A stretch of DNA of 64,000 nucleotides from Escherichia virus KFS-EC, in the sequence record MH560358; one strand, given 5' to 3'. The notes under the pieces were generated by a model. It made no database searches and was not told where the DNA came from. It saw only the letters and a program-made list of their open reading frames with translations. The position numbers were made by a program, and so were the translations under genes. Positions 1,594 to 61,091 of the stretch are shown one piece after another; the first letter of the stretch is position 1; every line of letters begins with the position of its first letter.

Positions 1594-2352
1594 TTACTTG
1601 CAAACGTATTGATCTACATCAATTGCGCCACCGAATGTAGGATGACGTTTTTCGAATCGAATAGTTCCGTCGTTTGGTTCGAAAACGGAGTATTCATATA
1701 GATCTTTCTTGCCAACATTCTTATAAAACCCGCCTTTAGTCATAACGGTTTCTTGTACGTTTGCTTTGTGTACGTTGTATTCATCAATGTATACAAAATC
1801 AACCATCTTCCCATTTTTAATTGTTACTTTAAGATCTCCTGGTTGGTTTCCATATTTTGCATACAGTGGGGCTTCTTTAATTTTGGTGGAAATTCCATCT
1901 TTCATACTCCACTCATAACGAACGGTGCATTGATAGGTAAAAGTTTCGACCTTCGGTTCTTCTACAACTTTTGCTTCCTGTTTCGGTTGTTCTTCGTCAA
2001 CCTTCGCAGAAGTCTCTGAATCGCTTTCCGACGCAGTTTCTTCTTTAGGTAATACATTCATCAAGTTTTGAATTTGAGCGTTATATACAGCCTCCAGTGG
2101 CTGAATCTGCCCGATATTGATCATTGTATCACGAACAGTTTTATTCCAGTTGCGTTGCTCTTGTTTAAGCGACAGATCAATCTTAACAGCCTTAACATAT
2201 ACTTCATGAAGTTTAGAATCCAGTGCGGAGATTGACTCATTGGCACAAATAAACTTCTCTGATTTGGTAGTGGCTTTAGCGCAATCAAAGGACGCAGCAT
2301 TAGCACCGAAAGCAGTAGCAGAAAGAACGATAGCAGCGATAATGTTTTTCAT
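1594..2352 (-). CDS. secreted protein with LprI/DUF1311-like N-terminal domain
   Basis: N-terminal signal peptide (MKNIIAAIVLSATAFGANA); motif FDCAKATTKSEKFICANESISALDSKL typical of lysozyme-inhibitor LprI-like domains; acidic linker; early promoter directly upstream. Confidence 0.7.
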   Translation of the reverse strand: MKNIIAAIVLSATAFGANAASFDCAKATTKSEKFICANESISALDSKLHEVYVKAVKIDLSLKQEQRNWNKTVRDTMINIGQIQPLEAVYNAQIQNLMNVLPKEETASESDSETSAKVDEEQPKQEAKVVEEPKVETFTYQCTVRYEWSMKDGISTKIKEAPLYAKYGNQPGDLKVTIKNGKMVDFVYIDEYNVHKANVQETVMTKGGFYKNVGKKDLYEYSVFEPNDGTIRFEKRHPTFGGAIDVDQYVCK

Positions 2353-54826: not shown

Positions 54827-55060
54827 TTTTGATTATATTTTATTCACGTCCATTTGTATAGTAGTGTTTGAATCGACCTTTGCTAAACTAGTTAAACATA
54901 GTAACCAATTCACCATCCCTTTCCAATGATAACACTTCCTCGTCTTAGACGGGTCTTCTGATTCGGCAGTAATTGAACACGCGAAAGTATGAGGAAGCCA
55001 AATAGTTGTGTTGATGCTAGTATTCTTTTACTTCTGGTATGTATCCCAATGTGACTAACA

Positions 55061-55459
55061 TTAAGCCAATCGAGTGAGTTTATAAATTGTTTTAAAGCAT
55101 AGAGCTTTGATATCGTCTAAAACGCTCTGTAACGAGCTATCAACATCATTATAAATCTCACTAGCCATTTGCGTTAACTCTTGCAAATAGGCAATTTCGC
55201 TCATCTCCTTGCGGACGACCAACGTTGGCTGATAACGACCAGTGATCCCAATATTGGTTTCAGTGAAATCATCAACCAATTCTTGCATTTCAAGATAGAA
55301 CTCTTCTAGAGCCTTATGTTTTGCATAAGATCCAGGACCAGTTACTCCAAAATGCGCAGAATGCATATAAGTAACACTCATCAGACATTCACCGATAAAG
55401 CGGTCAACTTTATTAGCTTTCCCCTCTTCGGACGTCTTTAGAAAATCAATGAATTTCAT
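55061..55459 (-). CDS. hypothetical protein (132 aa)
   Basis: internal ATG; overlaps 3' end of the secreted-protein gene. Confidence 0.45.
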   Translation of the reverse strand: MKFIDFLKTSEEGKANKVDRFIGECLMSVTYMHSAHFGVTGPGSYAKHKALEEFYLEMQELVDDFTETNIGITGRYQPTLVVRKEMSEIAYLQELTQMASEIYNDVDSSLQSVLDDIKALCFKTIYKLTRLA

Positions 55460-55748
55460 GTTCTCTATTCTCCATATTATGCAACATAACAAACTGTTGT
55501 GCGGCATATTCCCCCATAATAAAACACTGCTTAGAATCCATACATTTACTACGAGCATACATCTTCATAATATGGGCATGAAATTTCTGGCTGGTTTCAA
55601 TGGAAGGAGATATTTTGTTTACATATACTATCATTGCACCGTCGAAATAATCAGTAAAGTCACCAGTTGGATCATATTGATCAGCACTGACACTTCCGAC
55701 CGCAGTCAAGCATATTGCCGCTGTTAGAGTTTTACGAATAAATGACAT
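55446..55748 (-). CDS. secreted protein (100 aa) with signal peptide
   Basis: MSFIRKTLTAAICLTAVGSVSA signal peptide; GGGGGAA SD; TATAAATA element about 35 nt upstream. Confidence 0.6.
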   Translation of the reverse strand: MSFIRKTLTAAICLTAVGSVSADQYDPTGDFTDYFDGAMIVYVNKISPSIETSQKFHAHIMKMYARSKCMDSKQCFIMGEYAAQQFVMLHNMENREHEIH

Positions 55749-55781
55749 AAGTCATTCCCCCAGATTTAAAATATTCAGTTA

Positions 55782-55789
55782 TATTTATA
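55782..55789 (-). promoter_or_regulatory. T4 late-promoter-like TATAAATA box inside a 9-bp-stem hairpin
   Basis: exact TATAAATA on minus strand, in loop of CCCCAGATT..AATCTGGGG inverted repeat (about 55757-55798). Confidence 0.35.
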
Positions 55790-55816
55790 ATCTGGGGCTT
55801 TATTTATGATTAACTC

Positions 55817-56413
55817 TTAGTTGGTAGTGCCATCAATAAAATGTTTACGGCACACAGAAACATATTTATCCTCTGCACCAACTTCGATTTGAGCACCATC
55901 GCGAATAACATTACCCTCTTTATCTACACGAAGGACCATTGTTGCTTTCTTGCCACAATGACAAATACCCTTCATTTCGACCAGTTTATCAGCAAATGCC
56001 ATCAATGCCGCAGATCCTTCAAATAGATTGCCCTGAAAGTCAGTGCGAAGGCCATAGCACAGTACAGGGATATTTGCATCATCAACAAGCGCACACAAGC
56101 CTAAAACATGCTCTTTAGTCATAAATTGGGCTTCATCTACAAATACAGCATCAGGACGCCAGCGATCTGGTCTACGCTTACCTAACGATTCACGATAAAC
56201 CAAGTCGAAAAGATCATCCGATTCAGTGAAGGTGATCGCTGGAGCACTTAGACCAATTCGGGAAACAACTTCACTTTCTGAATCTCGATTATCAATCGCT
56301 GGCTTAAGAATTAATACTCGCATATCACGTTCGGTATAGTTATAAGCACTTTGTAACAGAGAAGTTGATTTGCCAGCGTTCATAGATGCATAGTAGAAAT
56401 ATAATTGCGCCAT
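55817..56413 (-). CDS. tk: thymidine kinase
   Basis: matches T4 Tk as recalled (Y.AMNAGKS.SLL, VL.LKPAID.RDS, VDEAQF, YGLRTDF.G.LFEGS, CHCGKKA). Confidence 0.92.
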   Translation of the reverse strand: MAQLYFYYASMNAGKSTSLLQSAYNYTERDMRVLILKPAIDNRDSESEVVSRIGLSAPAITFTESDDLFDLVYRESLGKRRPDRWRPDAVFVDEAQFMTKEHVLGLCALVDDANIPVLCYGLRTDFQGNLFEGSAALMAFADKLVEMKGICHCGKKATMVLRVDKEGNVIRDGAQIEVGAEDKYVSVCRKHFIDGTTN

Positions 56414-56706
56414 TAATTAATCTCCAAAAATCCAGCAAGACCTAAACCGATATAAGTCCAGATACCAATAAAAAAGATGTTAATGCTCATGGCAAGGATA
56501 AACCCTTTTAGCGTTTTAGGATATCCAACCCAATATTCCAGACCATCTTCTAACCGGATCAGTTTATTGCCCTGAGAGTCCATATCGACTACAACATGTT
56601 TATTTCGAGATTGCAATAGATATTGTTTTACAATCTCTACACCCGCCATAATAACAATAACGAAAATAAAAGTCCACACAACAAGATTAATGATAGTCTC
56701 AAGCAT
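56413..56706 (-). CDS. membrane protein (97 aa)
   Basis: two hydrophobic helices; ATGA coupling to tk; GGAGGTGA SD. Confidence 0.55.
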   Translation of the reverse strand: MLETIINLVVWTFIFVIVIMAGVEIVKQYLLQSRNKHVVVDMDSQGNKLIRLEDGLEYWVGYPKTLKGFILAMSINIFFIGIWTYIGLGLAGFLEIN

Positions 56707-56917
56707 TTTCTATCACCTCCACCCAATCAGGTGTTTCCTGAAAGACTCCTTCACCTTCATGATGGTCGCAACCTTTATTGCTGCAATACATCCACCAATC
56801 CCACATTCCCCACGGTAAACGCTGCATATCGTCGTTACAGCAAGTGAAGATGATAGGCCAACCACATCTACCACAACGGCAGTTTTCCTTCATGTGAGCG
56901 GTATTAGGCTTCTTCAT
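56699..56917 (-). CDS. Cys-rich zinc-binding small protein (72 aa)
   Basis: CRCGRCG...CC...CSNKGCDHH; internal ATG with GGAG SD. Confidence 0.45.
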   Translation of the reverse strand: MKKPNTAHMKENCRCGRCGWPIIFTCCNDDMQRLPWGMWDWWMYCSNKGCDHHEGEGVFQETPDWVEVIENA

Positions 56918-57108
56918 AGATGACTCCAATATAATCGACATTTACATTTAGGGCAATGCGGTTCTTTAATATAATACCCGTCTGTCTTTGGAACACTAAC
57001 AGGAGCGGTTTTTATATTGTATTCAATGAAACAACGAAAACAAGTTACGTTTTCTACAGACTGACGTTTCACCCAATCACCGGAATATAGATCATTTTTA
57101 TTTGTCAT
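56914..57108 (-). CDS. zinc-ribbon small protein (64 aa)
   Basis: CFRC...CPKCKC; internal ATG. Confidence 0.45.
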   Translation of the reverse strand: MTNKNDLYSGDWVKRQSVENVTCFRCFIEYNIKTAPVSVPKTDGYYIKEPHCPKCKCRLYWSHL

Positions 57109-57553
57109 ATTCAACCACCACAATGTTAATGTCTGGAGTAGCAATATTAATGATCTCTTCTACACATTCCCACTCAAGGCCACCGATACCGCAACCGATT
57201 TTAGGAATATAGAAAGGCTGTATAGCACCCTCAAAAACATCATTGAGAGACTCAAATCCTTTCAGGATAGCACCATATTCAGCATTTGGACCCGGTCGGA
57301 ATTGGGTATAGAGATTCACCCCGCACCAGTTATAACCATTAACTTGATGCGTCCAGACACTAAACCCACCCAGCTTTTCGACCTTACCGCGAGAAGTTTG
57401 CTTGTCAATCTCTAACGCTTGCGGGAACTCTTTCGCGATCTTCGCAGCAATACCAGCGCCCATAGTATGAAAACAATTACAACCATGAATTAAATGACCG
57501 TTTCCTTGTTTAAACAGGGCGATGAGATCGCCCTTTACAGTATCAATAATCAT
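57098..57553 (-). CDS. macro-domain protein (ADP-ribose binding/processing)
   Basis: GDLIALFKQGNGHLIHGCNCFHTMGAGIAAKI and IPKIGCGIGGL align with the macro-domain pattern GDIT...VNAAN...GGGV..AI and ...STGVYG; GAGGT SD. Confidence 0.6.
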   Translation of the reverse strand: MIIDTVKGDLIALFKQGNGHLIHGCNCFHTMGAGIAAKIAKEFPQALEIDKQTSRGKVEKLGGFSVWTHQVNGYNWCGVNLYTQFRPGPNAEYGAILKGFESLNDVFEGAIQPFYIPKIGCGIGGLEWECVEEIINIATPDINIVVVEYDK

Positions 57554-57568
57554 AATATAAACCTCACA

Positions 57569-57928
57569 TTAGTCACGGGAAGACAACCCAGCCATAAAAC
57601 GGCTTAACAGTGTGTCGCGATAAGCAAAGCATAATTGCTTATCAGGGGCAGTATCACACAGGTTACGTTTTGTTTTAGCAAAGCTGGCAATACTCAGATC
57701 CCACGCTCGATTTTTTCGTTTTTCGTCTCGACCTTGTTTGTATGCTTCATCAAGTTCGAGCGCGATAAAATCACTACACATGTTATCATCATCACAGAAA
57801 GTTTTAATGATCTTTTTGTTGATCTCAAATCCTTTGTATTCGAACTTTGGATAAGGGCGCTCATTACTAGCAAGCGCACCAGCAGAGAACATCATAGCAA
57901 TCATAGCAATTATTGTCAACTTTTTCAT
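57569..57928 (-). CDS. secreted protein (119 aa) with signal peptide
   Basis: MKKLTIIAMIAMMFSAGALA signal peptide; four Cys. Confidence 0.55.
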   Translation of the reverse strand: MKKLTIIAMIAMMFSAGALASNERPYPKFEYKGFEINKKIIKTFCDDDNMCSDFIALELDEAYKQGRDEKRKNRAWDLSIASFAKTKRNLCDTAPDKQLCFAYRDTLLSRFMAGLSSRD

Positions 57929-57935
57929 ATATTCC

Positions 57936-58526
57936 TCAATAGCGTTTAGTCTTAAGAATGCCTTTACTCTTTAGATGGTTAGCCTTTTTTAGTACGTCAT
58001 CAGCATAACCTAATCCGGCTTTATAGTTCCATCCAGCATTGTAAGAAGCTAGCGCGAGTCTGATATTACCGTTTCGAATATCCAGCCAGTATGCTAACTC
58101 ATCCATCGCGTAGAATGCAGAAACCTCGCGATTCATGATAAAGTTGATAGTCTGGCGATCACTCATTTTAACACCGCGCTTTGCATTTTTCGCTTTCACC
58201 GTTTTAAGGTAATTTTGAAATAATCCATAAGCATGATGATTTTTCTTTGGTGCTAAGTTTGCACCCGCGCTTGATTCTTGCCATGCGATACCCGCCAGGA
58301 TGTGACCTAAACCCTTTCCGTTATAGCGAATATTCGGATGGTACTTTTTCAACTTACCGCTTTTCTCGAATTGCTCGCCGTATTGATAGGCGAAATGTAA
58401 ATTATCTAGTTGGTGTGCTGTAAAGTTGTCTATCGGCGCTTTTTTGATCGGTGCGCTAGTCGATGCGTGTGTAGCACCAACGGCTAGTGACAGACTCAAT
58501 ACTATCGCTTTTAGAACTTTTAACAT
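57936..58526 (-). CDS. secreted lytic transglycosylase-like protein (SLT domain)
   Basis: signal peptide MLKVLKAIVLSLSLAVGATHA; SLT-like motifs GIAWQESS, AYGLFQ, ASYNAG; AGGAGA SD. Confidence 0.6.
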   Translation of the reverse strand: MLKVLKAIVLSLSLAVGATHASTSAPIKKAPIDNFTAHQLDNLHFAYQYGEQFEKSGKLKKYHPNIRYNGKGLGHILAGIAWQESSAGANLAPKKNHHAYGLFQNYLKTVKAKNAKRGVKMSDRQTINFIMNREVSAFYAMDELAYWLDIRNGNIRLALASYNAGWNYKAGLGYADDVLKKANHLKSKGILKTKRY

Positions 58527-58611
58527 TAATTTCTCCTGTTTGGCTTAACTTTCTGATTCCATAATATAGCCCTATCACCAGAAAGTCAAGCATTAATTTA
58601 ACCAATTTCCA

Positions 58612-59034
58612 TTATTGGTCTACCTTCAAAACAACAGCCGACATTTTACCCGCCAGTCGTTTTGGATTCTCTATAATCATTCGGCAGCATAGACCGTGAT
58701 ATGGCTTACCATCTTCGATTAGATCTACTGTCATCCCGATCCACATGTTACCGTCAGTAATTTCTAATCGATTAGGTCGGTCTTCCATTTTCAGGAAGTC
58801 GAAGATCTCCGGCAAACGAGTTTCTATCTTATTGAATAGTTCCATTGTCTTATGTTCATCGATATGACGATCGGTTAGACGGTCGATCATATGCGGACTA
58901 AAGCGAATGAAAATATACTCACCATAACCATCATTCAAGCACTTTTCTTTGATCTGCGCATTGGTTTTGCGCATTTCGGTTTCGAAGAATCTACGCAGCT
59001 TACTACGGCGAACATGTACGTTAATTGTTTCCAT
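58612..59034 (-). CDS. regB: RegB site-specific endoribonuclease
   Basis: matches T4 RegB as recalled (IRR.KLRR.FE.E, RLEITDGN.W.G.TV, CRM.I.N..RL.GK); start at internal ATG with AAAGGA SD. Confidence 0.85.
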   Translation of the reverse strand: METINVHVRRSKLRRFFETEMRKTNAQIKEKCLNDGYGEYIFIRFSPHMIDRLTDRHIDEHKTMELFNKIETRLPEIFDFLKMEDRPNRLEITDGNMWIGMTVDLIEDGKPYHGLCCRMIIENPKRLAGKMSAVVLKVDQ

Positions 59035-59038
59035 TTTA

Positions 59039-59374
59039 TTATCCTTTCTTAAACAAATTGCGAAGCCAGTATACAAACGGGATTTCTTTAAACTTGAATT
59101 TCTCTATAGTTAATTCTTTAGTAGCAAGATGAATACCATAAGCATCATGTGTCACGATATGCCATTTTCTATAGTCCAAATGTGAACAACCGTCTGGATC
59201 TAGGTTAATAAGAGTTTCTCGCTCACTAGGATTATTTTTCCACAATTTTGTAATAGGATCGCACATAATTCGACCTAGCGTACCATGAATAATCTCACAA
59301 CGGTAAAGTTTTCCAGCAGTGAGATAGGCGCACCCGTCATAGTCGGTATAAACAAACACTTCTTTAACACTCAT
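59039..59374 (-). CDS. DGCSHL-repeat small protein (111 aa)
   Basis: two copies of DG-C-(A/S)-(Y/H)-L motif; paralog of 59677-59871; promoter upstream. Confidence 0.5.
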   Translation of the reverse strand: MSVKEVFVYTDYDGCAYLTAGKLYRCEIIHGTLGRIMCDPITKLWKNNPSERETLINLDPDGCSHLDYRKWHIVTHDAYGIHLATKELTIEKFKFKEIPFVYWLRNLFKKG

Positions 59375-59434
59375 TTTAATAATCCTTTGTTGTTTCGATG
59401 GGGGTATATTACTACCCCCGATCATGTATGTCAA

Positions 59435-59680
59435 CTACTTTTTCAAGATTTTTTTGATTGCATTCCAAAGACCTTTATTTCCAGGTTGTTTTGGTTCTTC
59501 GATCAGTGTCCATGTTCGACCGTCTAAGTGTGCACAATTTTTAAGGCAAATAAAAATCTAGTGTCCCTTATCATCACGGATATAACCACTATTCGCAAAT
59601 CTTTCATGTGGTGTATATTCATACAGTGTATTAGGTGTAATATACTTGCGGTTACTATAAGGTGTCATCACATACATCAT
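59435..59680 (-). pseudogene. paralog of DGCSHL family interrupted by in-frame amber (TAG) codon at 59558-59560
   Basis: hand translation: 40 codons, TAG, then 40 codons (…GYIRDDKGH*IFICLKNCAHLDGRTWTLI…) still aligning with neighbouring paralogs; ATGA-coupled start. Confidence 0.45.
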
Positions 59681-59871
59681 GGTACTAACTCCCAACGATC
59701 ACCGCGAAGATGAGAACATCCACCATCAAGAAGTATTGTAATACGATAACCTATATCATCTTTGATGTAACCGATTGTCGGTGGATTTTCGTCGTCTCGT
59801 GCCGGGGTAAAATCATACATCTTTCCGGGCGTAATATCTTGTCCTTTATTGCTATTTGTATAAACTTGCAT
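59677..59871 (-). CDS. DGCSHL-repeat small protein (64 aa)
   Basis: ATG with AGGAGA SD; LDGGCSHLRGDRW motif. Confidence 0.5.
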   Translation of the reverse strand: MQVYTNSNKGQDITPGKMYDFTPARDDENPPTIGYIKDDIGYRITILLDGGCSHLRGDRWELVP

Positions 59872-59892
59872 TTTCTTAATCTCCTATATTAA

Positions 59893-60591
59893 CTAACCAC
59901 GGGTATAGTGTTCCAGAACAACTGTCAGATGAATATATTCTAATAGATCTTTCCAAAAGTCAACATCTGGTTCTTCCGGCATACCGTTTTTCTTTGCCTC
60001 TTCACGCGCGAGTTTAACACGCTCGTAGAGATCTTTCAATTCTTCCCGCACATTATCAAAGGTTCTTTCTCCTAACTTACACGCTAAAATAGAAGAACGT
60101 CGCTCGAGCGGGAATTGTAGATCACCTGTCTGATAGATTTCAAGTAGCTGATAACCAACACGCAGAGCATGAGAAAGATCTTTCCAGTTACTGAAATACT
60201 TTTCAGATTTAGCTACCTGTTTCTTGAGATAACCAGACAAACCCCACATCCCAACATGATAGAATTTATCGCGATGTGTTCGGATGTATTCCCATTCTCT
60301 GGAGGATTCAATCAACATGTTACTAGGAGCGTGCACCATATCAATAGCGCCGATATCACCTTTACATGCCAGATTGATAAACCGTTTTAGACTGAACATA
60401 TTAACGTCAATGTCGTCTTTGGTGTTCTTGATACCTTGACCGCTAGTGCTTTGGTCATAGTGTTCTTTCATCGATCCTAAGATAATTTCTTTCGCAGTCG
60501 GAACAAAGATACCACGATAATCTTTATCGGAATTTTCAGTATCAAGGCCGTATAAGTGAGATCCGAAAACCATTTTAACCATTGTATGCAT
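59893..60591 (-). CDS. Pol-beta-superfamily nucleotidyltransferase-like protein
   Basis: N-terminal GS...D.D signature (FGSHLYGLDTENSDKDYRG) typical of minimal nucleotidyltransferase fold, followed by helical domain; GAGGG SD. Confidence 0.5.
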   Translation of the reverse strand: MHTMVKMVFGSHLYGLDTENSDKDYRGIFVPTAKEIILGSMKEHYDQSTSGQGIKNTKDDIDVNMFSLKRFINLACKGDIGAIDMVHAPSNMLIESSREWEYIRTHRDKFYHVGMWGLSGYLKKQVAKSEKYFSNWKDLSHALRVGYQLLEIYQTGDLQFPLERRSSILACKLGERTFDNVREELKDLYERVKLAREEAKKNGMPEEPDVDFWKDLLEYIHLTVVLEHYTRG

Positions 60592-60643
60592 AATTAAACC
60601 CTCAGTTGATTAAGAGATTGCATCATATCATCATAAAACGAAA

Positions 60644-60668
60644 AAGCCAACCCTTTTCGGATTGGCTT
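60644..60668 (-). terminator. rho-independent terminator after grcA-like gene
   Basis: AAGCCAA-loop-UUGGCUU hairpin followed by U-rich tract. Confidence 0.55.
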
Positions 60669-60674
60669 AAAAAT

Positions 60675-61091
60675 TTACATTGCTTCCGTAAAGGTGCGCG
60701 AAATAACATCACGTTGTTGGTCTGGAGTCAGACTATTGAATCTTACGGCATATCCGCTAACGCGAATGGTTAGTTGCGGATACTTATCAGGATTAGCAAC
60801 CGCATCAAGAAGAAGATCGCGACTCATCACATTGATATTCGCGTGCTGGCCTCCTTCGACAACCGGAGCACCATTATCTACAATCACCGGACGGAAGCTA
60901 GTTGTGTGCAGTGCCAGCGAATCGACGTCTTCTGCGGTGATCACATGGTCTTCTGCGAAAGTTTTACTAACAATTACTTTAGCGCCGATCAGTGCTTTCG
61001 GTTCGGATACCAGAATCATAGGCGCGAAGTGTCCACCAATAATAGTACCTTTATGCTCACCTTTCATGATTTGAATTGCTTTAAATTCCAT
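60675..61091 (-). CDS. autonomous glycyl radical cofactor (GrcA/YfiD homolog)
   Basis: C-terminus [33 protein letters not shown] nearly identical to the PFL/GrcA glycyl radical motif. Confidence 0.85.

Follow-up and report, generated by a model that had tools for sequence, protein, structure and literature searches.

Predicted export of the vs.1 and vs products of Escherichia virus KFS-EC: a transglycosylase-like enzyme and a small cysteine-containing protein at odds with its inherited annotation

A 64,000-nucleotide (nt) stretch of DNA from Escherichia virus KFS-EC (record MH560358), referred to here as the window, contains on its minus strand two adjacent open reading frames (ORFs), both with an ATG start, at positions 57936-58526 (196 amino acids, aa) and 57569-57928 (119 aa), which are identified from gene order and sequence comparison as the Krischvirus versions of vs.1 and vs of phage T4, respectively. 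On balance, we incline to the reading that the pair is translationally coupled and transcribed early, that both products would be exported via the Sec pathway, and that Vs.1 would serve as a wall-remodelling transglycosylase and Vs as a modulator of a muramidase. The main value of the analysis lies in a conflict, since the predicted export of Vs does not agree with its inherited annotation as a cytoplasmic “valyl-tRNA synthetase modifier”.

The assignment of the two ORFs follows from the synteny of Krischvirus genomes, in which the annotations of RB49, Phi1 and JSE agree on an order of rI, tk, further genes, tk.4, vs, vs.1 and regB; in the RefSeq record of Phi1, the series along the plus strand of the locus is rI.-1, rI, tk, then three small ORFs, followed by tk.4, vs, vs.1, regB. 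PHROG matches and BLASTP comparison with the T4 proteins support the same identity. The 6-kb stretch around the pair shares 97-98% DNA identity with RB49, Phi1, JSE, GEC-3S and other Krischvirus genomes, and by this sequence comparison the window is that of a Krischvirus of the RB49/Phi1/JSE type. Phage genomes with homologues at 23-60% identity number from hundreds to thousands, which marks both ORFs as real genes and not chance reading frames. The pair was recognised by the original prediction neither as T4 vs.1 and vs nor by the label attached to the second ORF. As members of known T4 families, the two genes are in themselves of modest interest, and the SLT prediction for vs.1 has already been published.

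Export signals and the inherited label of Vs

Signal peptides were assessed heuristically from the charge of the n-region, the hydrophobicity and length of the h-region, the residues at positions -3 and -1 and possible lipoboxes, with positive and negative controls. Both N-termini combine a positively charged n-region, an h-region of 10-15 residues and small residues at -3/-1, as in substrates of Sec and signal peptidase I. In Vs.1 (MLKVLKAIVLSLSLAVGATHA↓STS, the arrow marking the predicted cleavage site; codons 1-21, 58464-58526, minus strand), two lysines in the n-region precede a 13-residue h-region and a THA↓S site at residues 21/22 that is common to close relatives, and the segment is modelled with low confidence in terms of the predicted local distance difference test (pLDDT). 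The predicted signal of Vs (MKKLTIIAMIAMMFSAGALA↓SNE; codons 1-20, 57869-57928, minus strand) ends in ALA↓S at residues 20/21. The T4 orthologues carry N-termini of the same kind (Vs.1, …MMAHS↓SEH; Vs, …SASASA↓DTS), and the predicted neo-N-terminal peptides are STSAPIK for Vs.1, SNERPYPK for Vs, DTSYTEIR for T4 Vs and SEHTFSNVQLDNMR for T4 Vs.1.

Across the families, the signal pattern is present in 24 of 25 Vs.1-type and 32 of 35 Vs-type proteins, the remainder appearing to be truncated at the N-terminus. The segments drift freely in sequence in both families and retain their architecture, as is expected of a functional signal; in the Vs of phage CC31, the AXA site is replaced by a lipobox, LSGC. 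The signal and the catalytic motifs are both retained in distantly related Vs.1-like proteins from Felixounavirus and from Ackermannviridae (Kuttervirus Mooltan, a Vibrio phage). Among the controls from the same window, the cytoplasmic Tk, Tk.4, RegB and NrdC.11 scored negative and RI, which is known to be exported, scored positive. The record of Acinetobacter phage Konradin notes a “putative periplasmic secretion signal” on Vs.1, Vs, two downstream ORFs and RI. The pair of signal-bearing ORFs originally predicted is thus borne out, export of Vs is held with good confidence, and Sec export with cleavage is what we infer for both proteins.

Vs matches phrog_1256 with E=1.8e-33 (“valyl tRNA synthetase modifier”), and the new Pfam family PF26829 (ValRS_modifier) is found in its close homologues, including a cluster representative with 97% identity. 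An exhaustive HMMER search over 1.84 billion cluster representatives returned a family of only 26 members, all single-domain proteins of 77-134 aa; the named members derive from phages save one that is labelled Acinetobacter baumannii and lies on a contig of phage size (169 kb). Seven positions (C45, C51, L59, G66, C91, C100 and G114) are invariant in 34 sequences, so that the cysteine content noted in the original prediction amounts to four residues conserved in 34/34 sequences (codons at 57794-57796, 57776-57778, 57656-57658 and 57629-57631 for C45, C51, C91 and C100; span 57629-57796, minus strand). T4 Vs (ORF 60.9; PF26829; phrog_1256) shares with it the family, the position after vs.1, the four aligned cysteines, the signal-peptide-like N-terminus and a C-terminal GLS motif, but identity amounts to 27% only (BLASTP, E=4e-8), and a tblastn search with the window Vs did not reach Tequatrovirus at E<=1e-3.

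In the AlphaFold2 model, Vs is built of four helices (pLDDT of the mature part ~83-96), with a CX5C pair (C45/C51) and a CX8C pair (C91/C100) located at helix-loop-helix turns. After loss of the ~20-residue signal peptide, a four-helix protein of ~11.6 kDa would remain, probably with two local disulfide staples (C45-C51 and C91-C100) that would form in the oxidising periplasm. Neither a significant sequence match in the PDB nor a fold relative of Vs was found.

The inherited label would make Vs a cytoplasmic modifier of valyl-tRNA synthetase (ValRS), the tau factor, whose N-terminus is an inefficient signal or allows dual localisation and whose adjacency to vs.1 is a matter of synteny. In genetic work, the vs locus reportedly acted in vivo on a host with a temperature-sensitive ValRS, vs.1 is widespread without vs, and the annotation has been passed on from T4 into GenBank, PHROGs and Pfam. 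The ValRS-modifying function goes back to experiments on T4 only, however, and conflicts in topology with the export predicted for the T4 and the window protein alike. A cytoplasmic location, needed to reach ValRS, is not what the predictions indicate for a family in which the signal architecture persists in 32/35 members despite sequence drift, in which the CC31 orthologue bears a lipobox, and whose four invariant cysteines lie in a ~95-aa helical domain, as is typical of extracytoplasmic proteins. No internal start that would yield a signal-less full Vs domain is present in the window or in T4. The computed mass of T4 Vs is 11.0 kDa for the mature form and 13.1 kDa for the precursor, and a tau factor of reportedly about 10 kDa would fit the processed form.

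In the literature searched, Vs is still regarded as binding ValRS, and a 2021 expression study (PMC8076793) still cites Muller and Marchin for the binding of T4 Vs to the valyl-tRNA ligase of the host; full-length, N-terminally His-tagged T4 Vs went into inclusion bodies in the cytoplasm of Escherichia coli, and a signal peptide is not mentioned there. The T4 record of 1986 (X04567) lists the two frames only as ORF 60.9 (vs) and ORF 61.4 (vs.1), and the basis for equating tau with ORF 60.9 could not be traced. Neither a discussion of the localisation conflict nor work on the localisation of Vs was found in the literature searched. We regard a cytoplasmic ValRS modifier as rather unlikely; modulation of a muramidase is the more likely function of Vs, and the present annotation is probably misleading. 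A further-reaching proposal, according to which Vs is an exported, disulfide-bonded periplasmic protein that works with or restrains Vs.1, with tau stemming from another small ORF or ValRS binding arising from mixing after cell breakage or from a minor cytoplasmic pool, is doubtful when taken as a whole.

The label has drifted further. Several GenBank records call the Vs protein of ~115 aa “valyl-tRNA synthetase”, and a publication of 2023 (PMC10698182) reads Vs as a phage tRNA synthetase.

The transglycosylase-like product of vs.1

The three SLT-domain motifs named in the original prediction are present in the 196-aa precursor (GIAWQESS at residues 79-86, AYGLFQ at 99-104, ASYNAG at 160-165), and residues 76-167 match the Pfam SLT model (PF01464) with 25.6 bits (gathering cut-off 21.3; E=9.6e-6); T4 Vs.1 likewise exceeds the gathering score, with 25.1 bits. 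An NCBIfam search gave no matches. All three motifs of family-1 lytic transglycosylases are conserved in two family alignments of 21 (A1) and 26 (A6) sequences. In motif I (WQES), E84 is invariant and S86 is retained in at least 90% of the sequences, so that the catalytic glutamate, the loss of which had been raised as a possible objection, is intact. In motif II (YGLFQ), G101 is invariant, with Y100, F103 and Q104 at 90% or above; in motif III (SYNAG), S161, Y162 and G165 are invariant, N163 is kept in at least 90%, and A164 is invariant in A6 and at or above 90% in A1. From these alignments, the alignment with EtgA and the structural model, E84 is predicted to be the only catalytic acid/base; its codon occupies 58275-58277 on the minus strand.

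The AlphaFold2 model, calculated from the family alignment, has a mean pLDDT of 85.6, with values >90 over most of residues 40-190, and places E84 at the C-terminal end of helix 74-85. The modelled catalytic part has the all-alpha, goose-lysozyme-like fold. A Foldseek comparison with the PDB returned lytic transglycosylases exclusively among the top 12 entries (MltD, Slt, Slt70-type, Cj0843) and in 14 of the top 16; the Tse3-Tsi3 complex and the complex of PliG with g-type lysozyme are also among the structural neighbours. At the sequence level, a PDB search with Vs.1 gave nothing significant, and a profile comparison with PDB sequences yielded a borderline match to EtgA (E=0.069) in which E84 aligns with the glutamate of AWNES. 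That Vs.1 is an exported enzyme of the transglycosylase fold is considered highly probable.

Sequence alone cannot reveal the chemistry, and Vs.1 could in principle act by hydrolysis, as goose-type lysozymes do, or bind peptidoglycan without catalysis. The three conserved family-1 motifs and the Pfam SLT match speak against both, and the alignment, as far as alignment evidence goes, shows no invariant second carboxylate (Asp or Glu) between E84 and G101, for which reason a single-acid transglycosylase fits better than a goose-type lysozyme. A hydrolase or mere binding protein is thus improbable, and lytic-transglycosylase chemistry is suggested from the sequence.

Vs.1 shares with Slt70, MltC, MltD, MltE, MltF and EtgA the E-S, G-L-x-Q and A-Y-N-A-G motifs and with the family-1 enzymes in general the Sec-dependent periplasmic location, which for Vs.1 is a prediction; in size and single-domain layout, it resembles EtgA and MltE. 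It differs from the family-1 enzymes in that it comes from a virulent phage, is expressed early, is not a lipoprotein, and carries a conserved N-terminal extension of ~40 residues (FxxxQxDNLxYAYxxGEQ) outside the SLT model; unlike EtgA-type enzymes, with which its profile similarity is the borderline one given above, it does not appear to be tied to a secretion apparatus. Compared with T4 Vs.1 (ORF 61.4; phrog_600), there is 53% identity over 158 residues (BLASTP, E=1e-55), and the position between regB and vs, the SLT motifs and the signal-peptide-like N-terminus are the same, but the window protein exceeds that of T4 by 15 residues and has, behind the signal, an additional linker rich in Ser/Thr/Pro/Lys (residues ~22-33).

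After loss of the ~21-residue signal peptide, Vs.1 would be a soluble, basic protein of ~19.8 kDa with the goose-lysozyme/SLT fold, in which E84 of the E-S motif would act as the sole catalytic carboxylate, serving as acid/base catalyst. It would most likely act on host peptidoglycan by non-hydrolytic cleavage of the MurNAc-beta-1,4-GlcNAc bond, leaving 1,6-anhydroMurNAc ends, and thereby, in the course of infection, loosen or remodel the sacculus locally without lysing the cell. A non-lytic role is suggested because a separate endolysin gene is annotated in Phi1 and because T4 e mutants fail to lyse though carrying vs.1.

These two points also count against Vs.1 as an auxiliary lysis enzyme of the signal-anchor-release (SAR) or secreted-endolysin type that would aid or time lysis and be held inactive by Vs until then. 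A muralytic fold with an export signal would suit such an enzyme, and some records label relatives “putative lysin”; Nolan et al. 2006 (PMC1524935), who noted in six T4-like genomes that vs.1 matches SLT marginally and cited earlier PSI-BLAST results on T4, suggested for it “some role in cell lysis”. But an h-region of ~13 residues followed by an AXA-type site (THA↓S) indicates a cleaved signal and not an SAR anchor, and the T4 transcript is early, not late. Little likelihood is therefore left for a lysis enzyme.

As the study of Nolan et al. and several GenBank records, in which Vs.1 homologues are called SLT-domain protein or lytic transglycosylase, make clear, the enzyme prediction is not new; experiments on T4 Vs.1 or the window Vs.1 were not found in the literature search. 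Other records mislabel Vs.1 homologues as “RegB” or “endoribonuclease”, apparently carried over from the neighbouring gene. Record OR844944.1, “Enterococcus phage Efm 3-10” (38.5 kb), contains a Vs.1-like match whose tblastn identity, E-value and bit score are those of a Salmonella phage hit, which suggests a mislabelled or contaminated record. With respect to cysteine content, 21 of 25 Vs.1-family proteins have none, and the versions from Felixounavirus and Ackermannviridae (Kuttervirus Mooltan and the Vibrio phage) have 3-5. In Felixounavirus tootiki (L015:1501-2049), a Vs.1-like secreted transglycosylase of the Felix O1 type is encoded directly downstream of rIIA-rIIB.

Linkage, expression and possible roles of the pair

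In the window, vs.1 is preceded by a Shine-Dalgarno sequence AGGAG (58533-58537, minus strand) 6 nt before its ATG, and its stop codon TGA (57936-57938) lies inside the Shine-Dalgarno sequence GAGGA of vs (57933-57937; junction tatTGAGGAatatATG, 57933-57938, minus strand), the two genes being 7 nt apart; this is an arrangement as in translational coupling. T4 differs in that the genes overlap by 8 nt. In eight loci with a measured junction (the window, T4, STP4-a, KMI13, Konradin, CC31, Acj133 and one metagenomic contig), the vs start lies between -8 and +7 nt from the vs.1 stop throughout (8/8), with TAATG or ATGA overlaps in six. Together with Proteus phage PM2, vs follows vs.1 directly in all nine independent loci.

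Early expression, as originally predicted, is plausible. The 85-bp gap between regB and vs.1 contains, by its consensus match, a candidate sigma70-type early promoter (TTGACT-17-TATTAT, 58561-58589, minus strand), at a position corresponding to the potential promoter before ORF 61.4 in X04567. In T4, both vs.1 and vs are classed as “early RNA / middle protein”, and both proteins have been detected (PMC9697503 supplements).

Following export, Vs would most likely bind and modulate a muramidase, for which the co-translated Vs.1 would be the first candidate; direct action of Vs on Vs.1 is put forward tentatively, as somewhat less than probable. As a lead by analogy, Vs may be likened in function to the partners known from Spackle-gp5, Ivy with lytic transglycosylases and the pairs of the type VI secretion system (T6SS; Tse3-Tsi3), with which it shares the small size, the signal, the cysteines, the predicted periplasmic location and, for its gene, the place beside that of a muramidase-fold protein. 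Ivy inhibits via a short disulfide-closed loop, and a CX5C loop sits at a helix-helix turn of Vs. Unlike this functional likeness, no sequence or fold relationship connects Vs to Spackle, Ivy or the T6SS immunity proteins.

The roles envisaged by the original prediction, i.e., superinfection exclusion, control of lysis inhibition and peptidoglycan remodelling after DNA injection, are speculation. In an exclusion scenario, extended to resistance to lysis from without, the tail lysozyme of incoming phages would be inhibited by Vs in the manner of Spackle, and Vs.1 would modify the wall. Early expression, the predicted periplasmic location and the closeness of the pair to rI, a few genes away, in T4-like phages of Acinetobacter and from metagenomes would suit it, but T4 already has Spackle and Imm, which serve superinfection exclusion. 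A precedent exists in Spackle, a small, helical, disulfide-bonded periplasmic T4 protein inhibiting the gp5 lysozyme (PMC7677548, PMC7650644). Nothing in the present analysis ties Vs to gp5, and we give the scenario little credence.

Several points weigh against a coupled, early-expressed pair of exported enzyme and modulator. Work by Neidhardt, Marchin and McClain between 1966 and 1980 is reported to have shown that the vs locus affects the stability of valyl-tRNA synthetase in vivo, which speaks for a cytoplasmic activity of the product of that locus, whatever it is. Export of Vs and of Vs.1 is a heuristic prediction from the sequences. Compared with the known inhibitors of lysozymes and transglycosylases (Ivy, PliC/MliC, PliG, LprI, Spackle), Vs shows no similarity in sequence or fold. 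T4-like phages of the Aeromonas type have regB-vs.1 without vs, and vs.1 also occurs outside the Straboviridae; vs.1-type genes were found in 2,084 phage records as opposed to 353 and 796 for two Vs queries. Since vs.1 is so widely present without vs, Vs is to be seen as an add-on and not as an obligate partner, and the adjacency of the two genes could reflect the strong synteny of T4-like genomes. Finally, a promoter scan of the region gave 10 sigma70-like sites where 8.8 were expected from shuffled sequences, i.e., not above chance.

A second sigma70-like site (57891-57919, minus strand; TTGACA-17-TATGAT with an upstream TG, 11/12 matches) lies in the signal-peptide codons of vs, and its transcripts would begin downstream of the vs start codon and run toward tk.4. 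Control of vs.1 by RegB was considered and dropped; the GGAG in the Shine-Dalgarno sequence of the window vs.1 is kept in only three of the eight loci.

In Proteus phage PM2 (MF001355.1, L008:1900-2446), vs.1 is split over two frames (tblastn pieces 1900-2214 and 2150-2446), and the record, a “partial genome”, shows a 98-aa ORF and a gap at this place, as would result from a sequencing frameshift or in a pseudogene. An absence of vs.1 from this phage was rejected; the gene is present and frameshifted.

Many T4-like phages encode directly downstream of vs a third family, phrog_4957 (~130-146 aa), that is absent from the window and from T4. Its members, at L004:2818-3219, L005:2740-3132, L006:2830-3255, L007:2737-3156, L008:2779-3219, L009:2722-3141 and L013:3894-4256, have a signal-peptide-like N-terminus, an invariant tryptophan just behind it and two invariant cysteines. 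In Acinetobacter phages, genes for predicted periplasmic proteins follow one another without a break, namely vs.1, vs, the phrog_4957 ORF, a further “secreted” ORF and rI.

Neighbouring genes, periplasmic repertoire and implications

Profile searches confirmed the neighbours RegB (PF10715, E=2e-48), the macro-domain protein Tk.4 and thymidine kinase. GC skew is negative across the whole window, as in the minus-strand-coded early region of a phage. Between tk and the tk.4 group, ORF 56413-56706 (minus strand, 97 aa) encodes a likely inner-membrane protein with two long hydrophobic segments; it corresponds to phrog_16027 (function not known) and to Phi1 ORF088. When positions 55000-61000 are compared with JSE (EU863408) and Whisky (MZ504878), these relatives align in two pieces over ~6.5 kb as against 6.0 kb, and a homing endonuclease is annotated in the JSE counterpart; from this, a mobile insertion of ~0.5 kb is present in those relatives and missing from the window.

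The original prediction had also described an unusually rich set of periplasm-targeted proteins. This did not hold, as a strict screen of the 119 non-overlapping coding-strand ORFs of the window retained three (Vs.1, Vs and ORF 1594-2352) in addition to RI, i.e., ~3%. The secreted protein counted at 55446-55748 is positive in the signal heuristic but is simply the RI antiholin (Pfam Antiholin, PF24205, E=1.6e-23). The LprI-like protein at 1594-2352 (minus strand, 252 aa; phrog_14799, function not known) was upheld, with a signal-like N-terminus (…FGANA↓ASFD) and a match to Pfam LprI (lysozyme inhibitor, DUF1311; E=6e-5) that lies just above the threshold (23.8 as against 22 bits), and could inhibit lysozyme in the periplasm. 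With an hhalign probability of 2%, it has no relationship to Vs, and a view of Vs as an LprI/DUF1311-type inhibitor akin to this ORF was rejected on that ground.

If the proposed relationship were true, Vs and Vs.1 would constitute a new phage enzyme-modulator pair that acts early in infection on the wall of the host. A demonstration that Vs resides in the periplasm would put right an assignment long established in textbooks and could reveal a new small muramidase regulator. Beyond Vs, an early-expressed, secreted transglycosylase in >2,000 phage genomes (Straboviridae, Felixounavirus, Ackermannviridae) would represent an unexplored step in the way large virulent phages handle the cell wall of their hosts.

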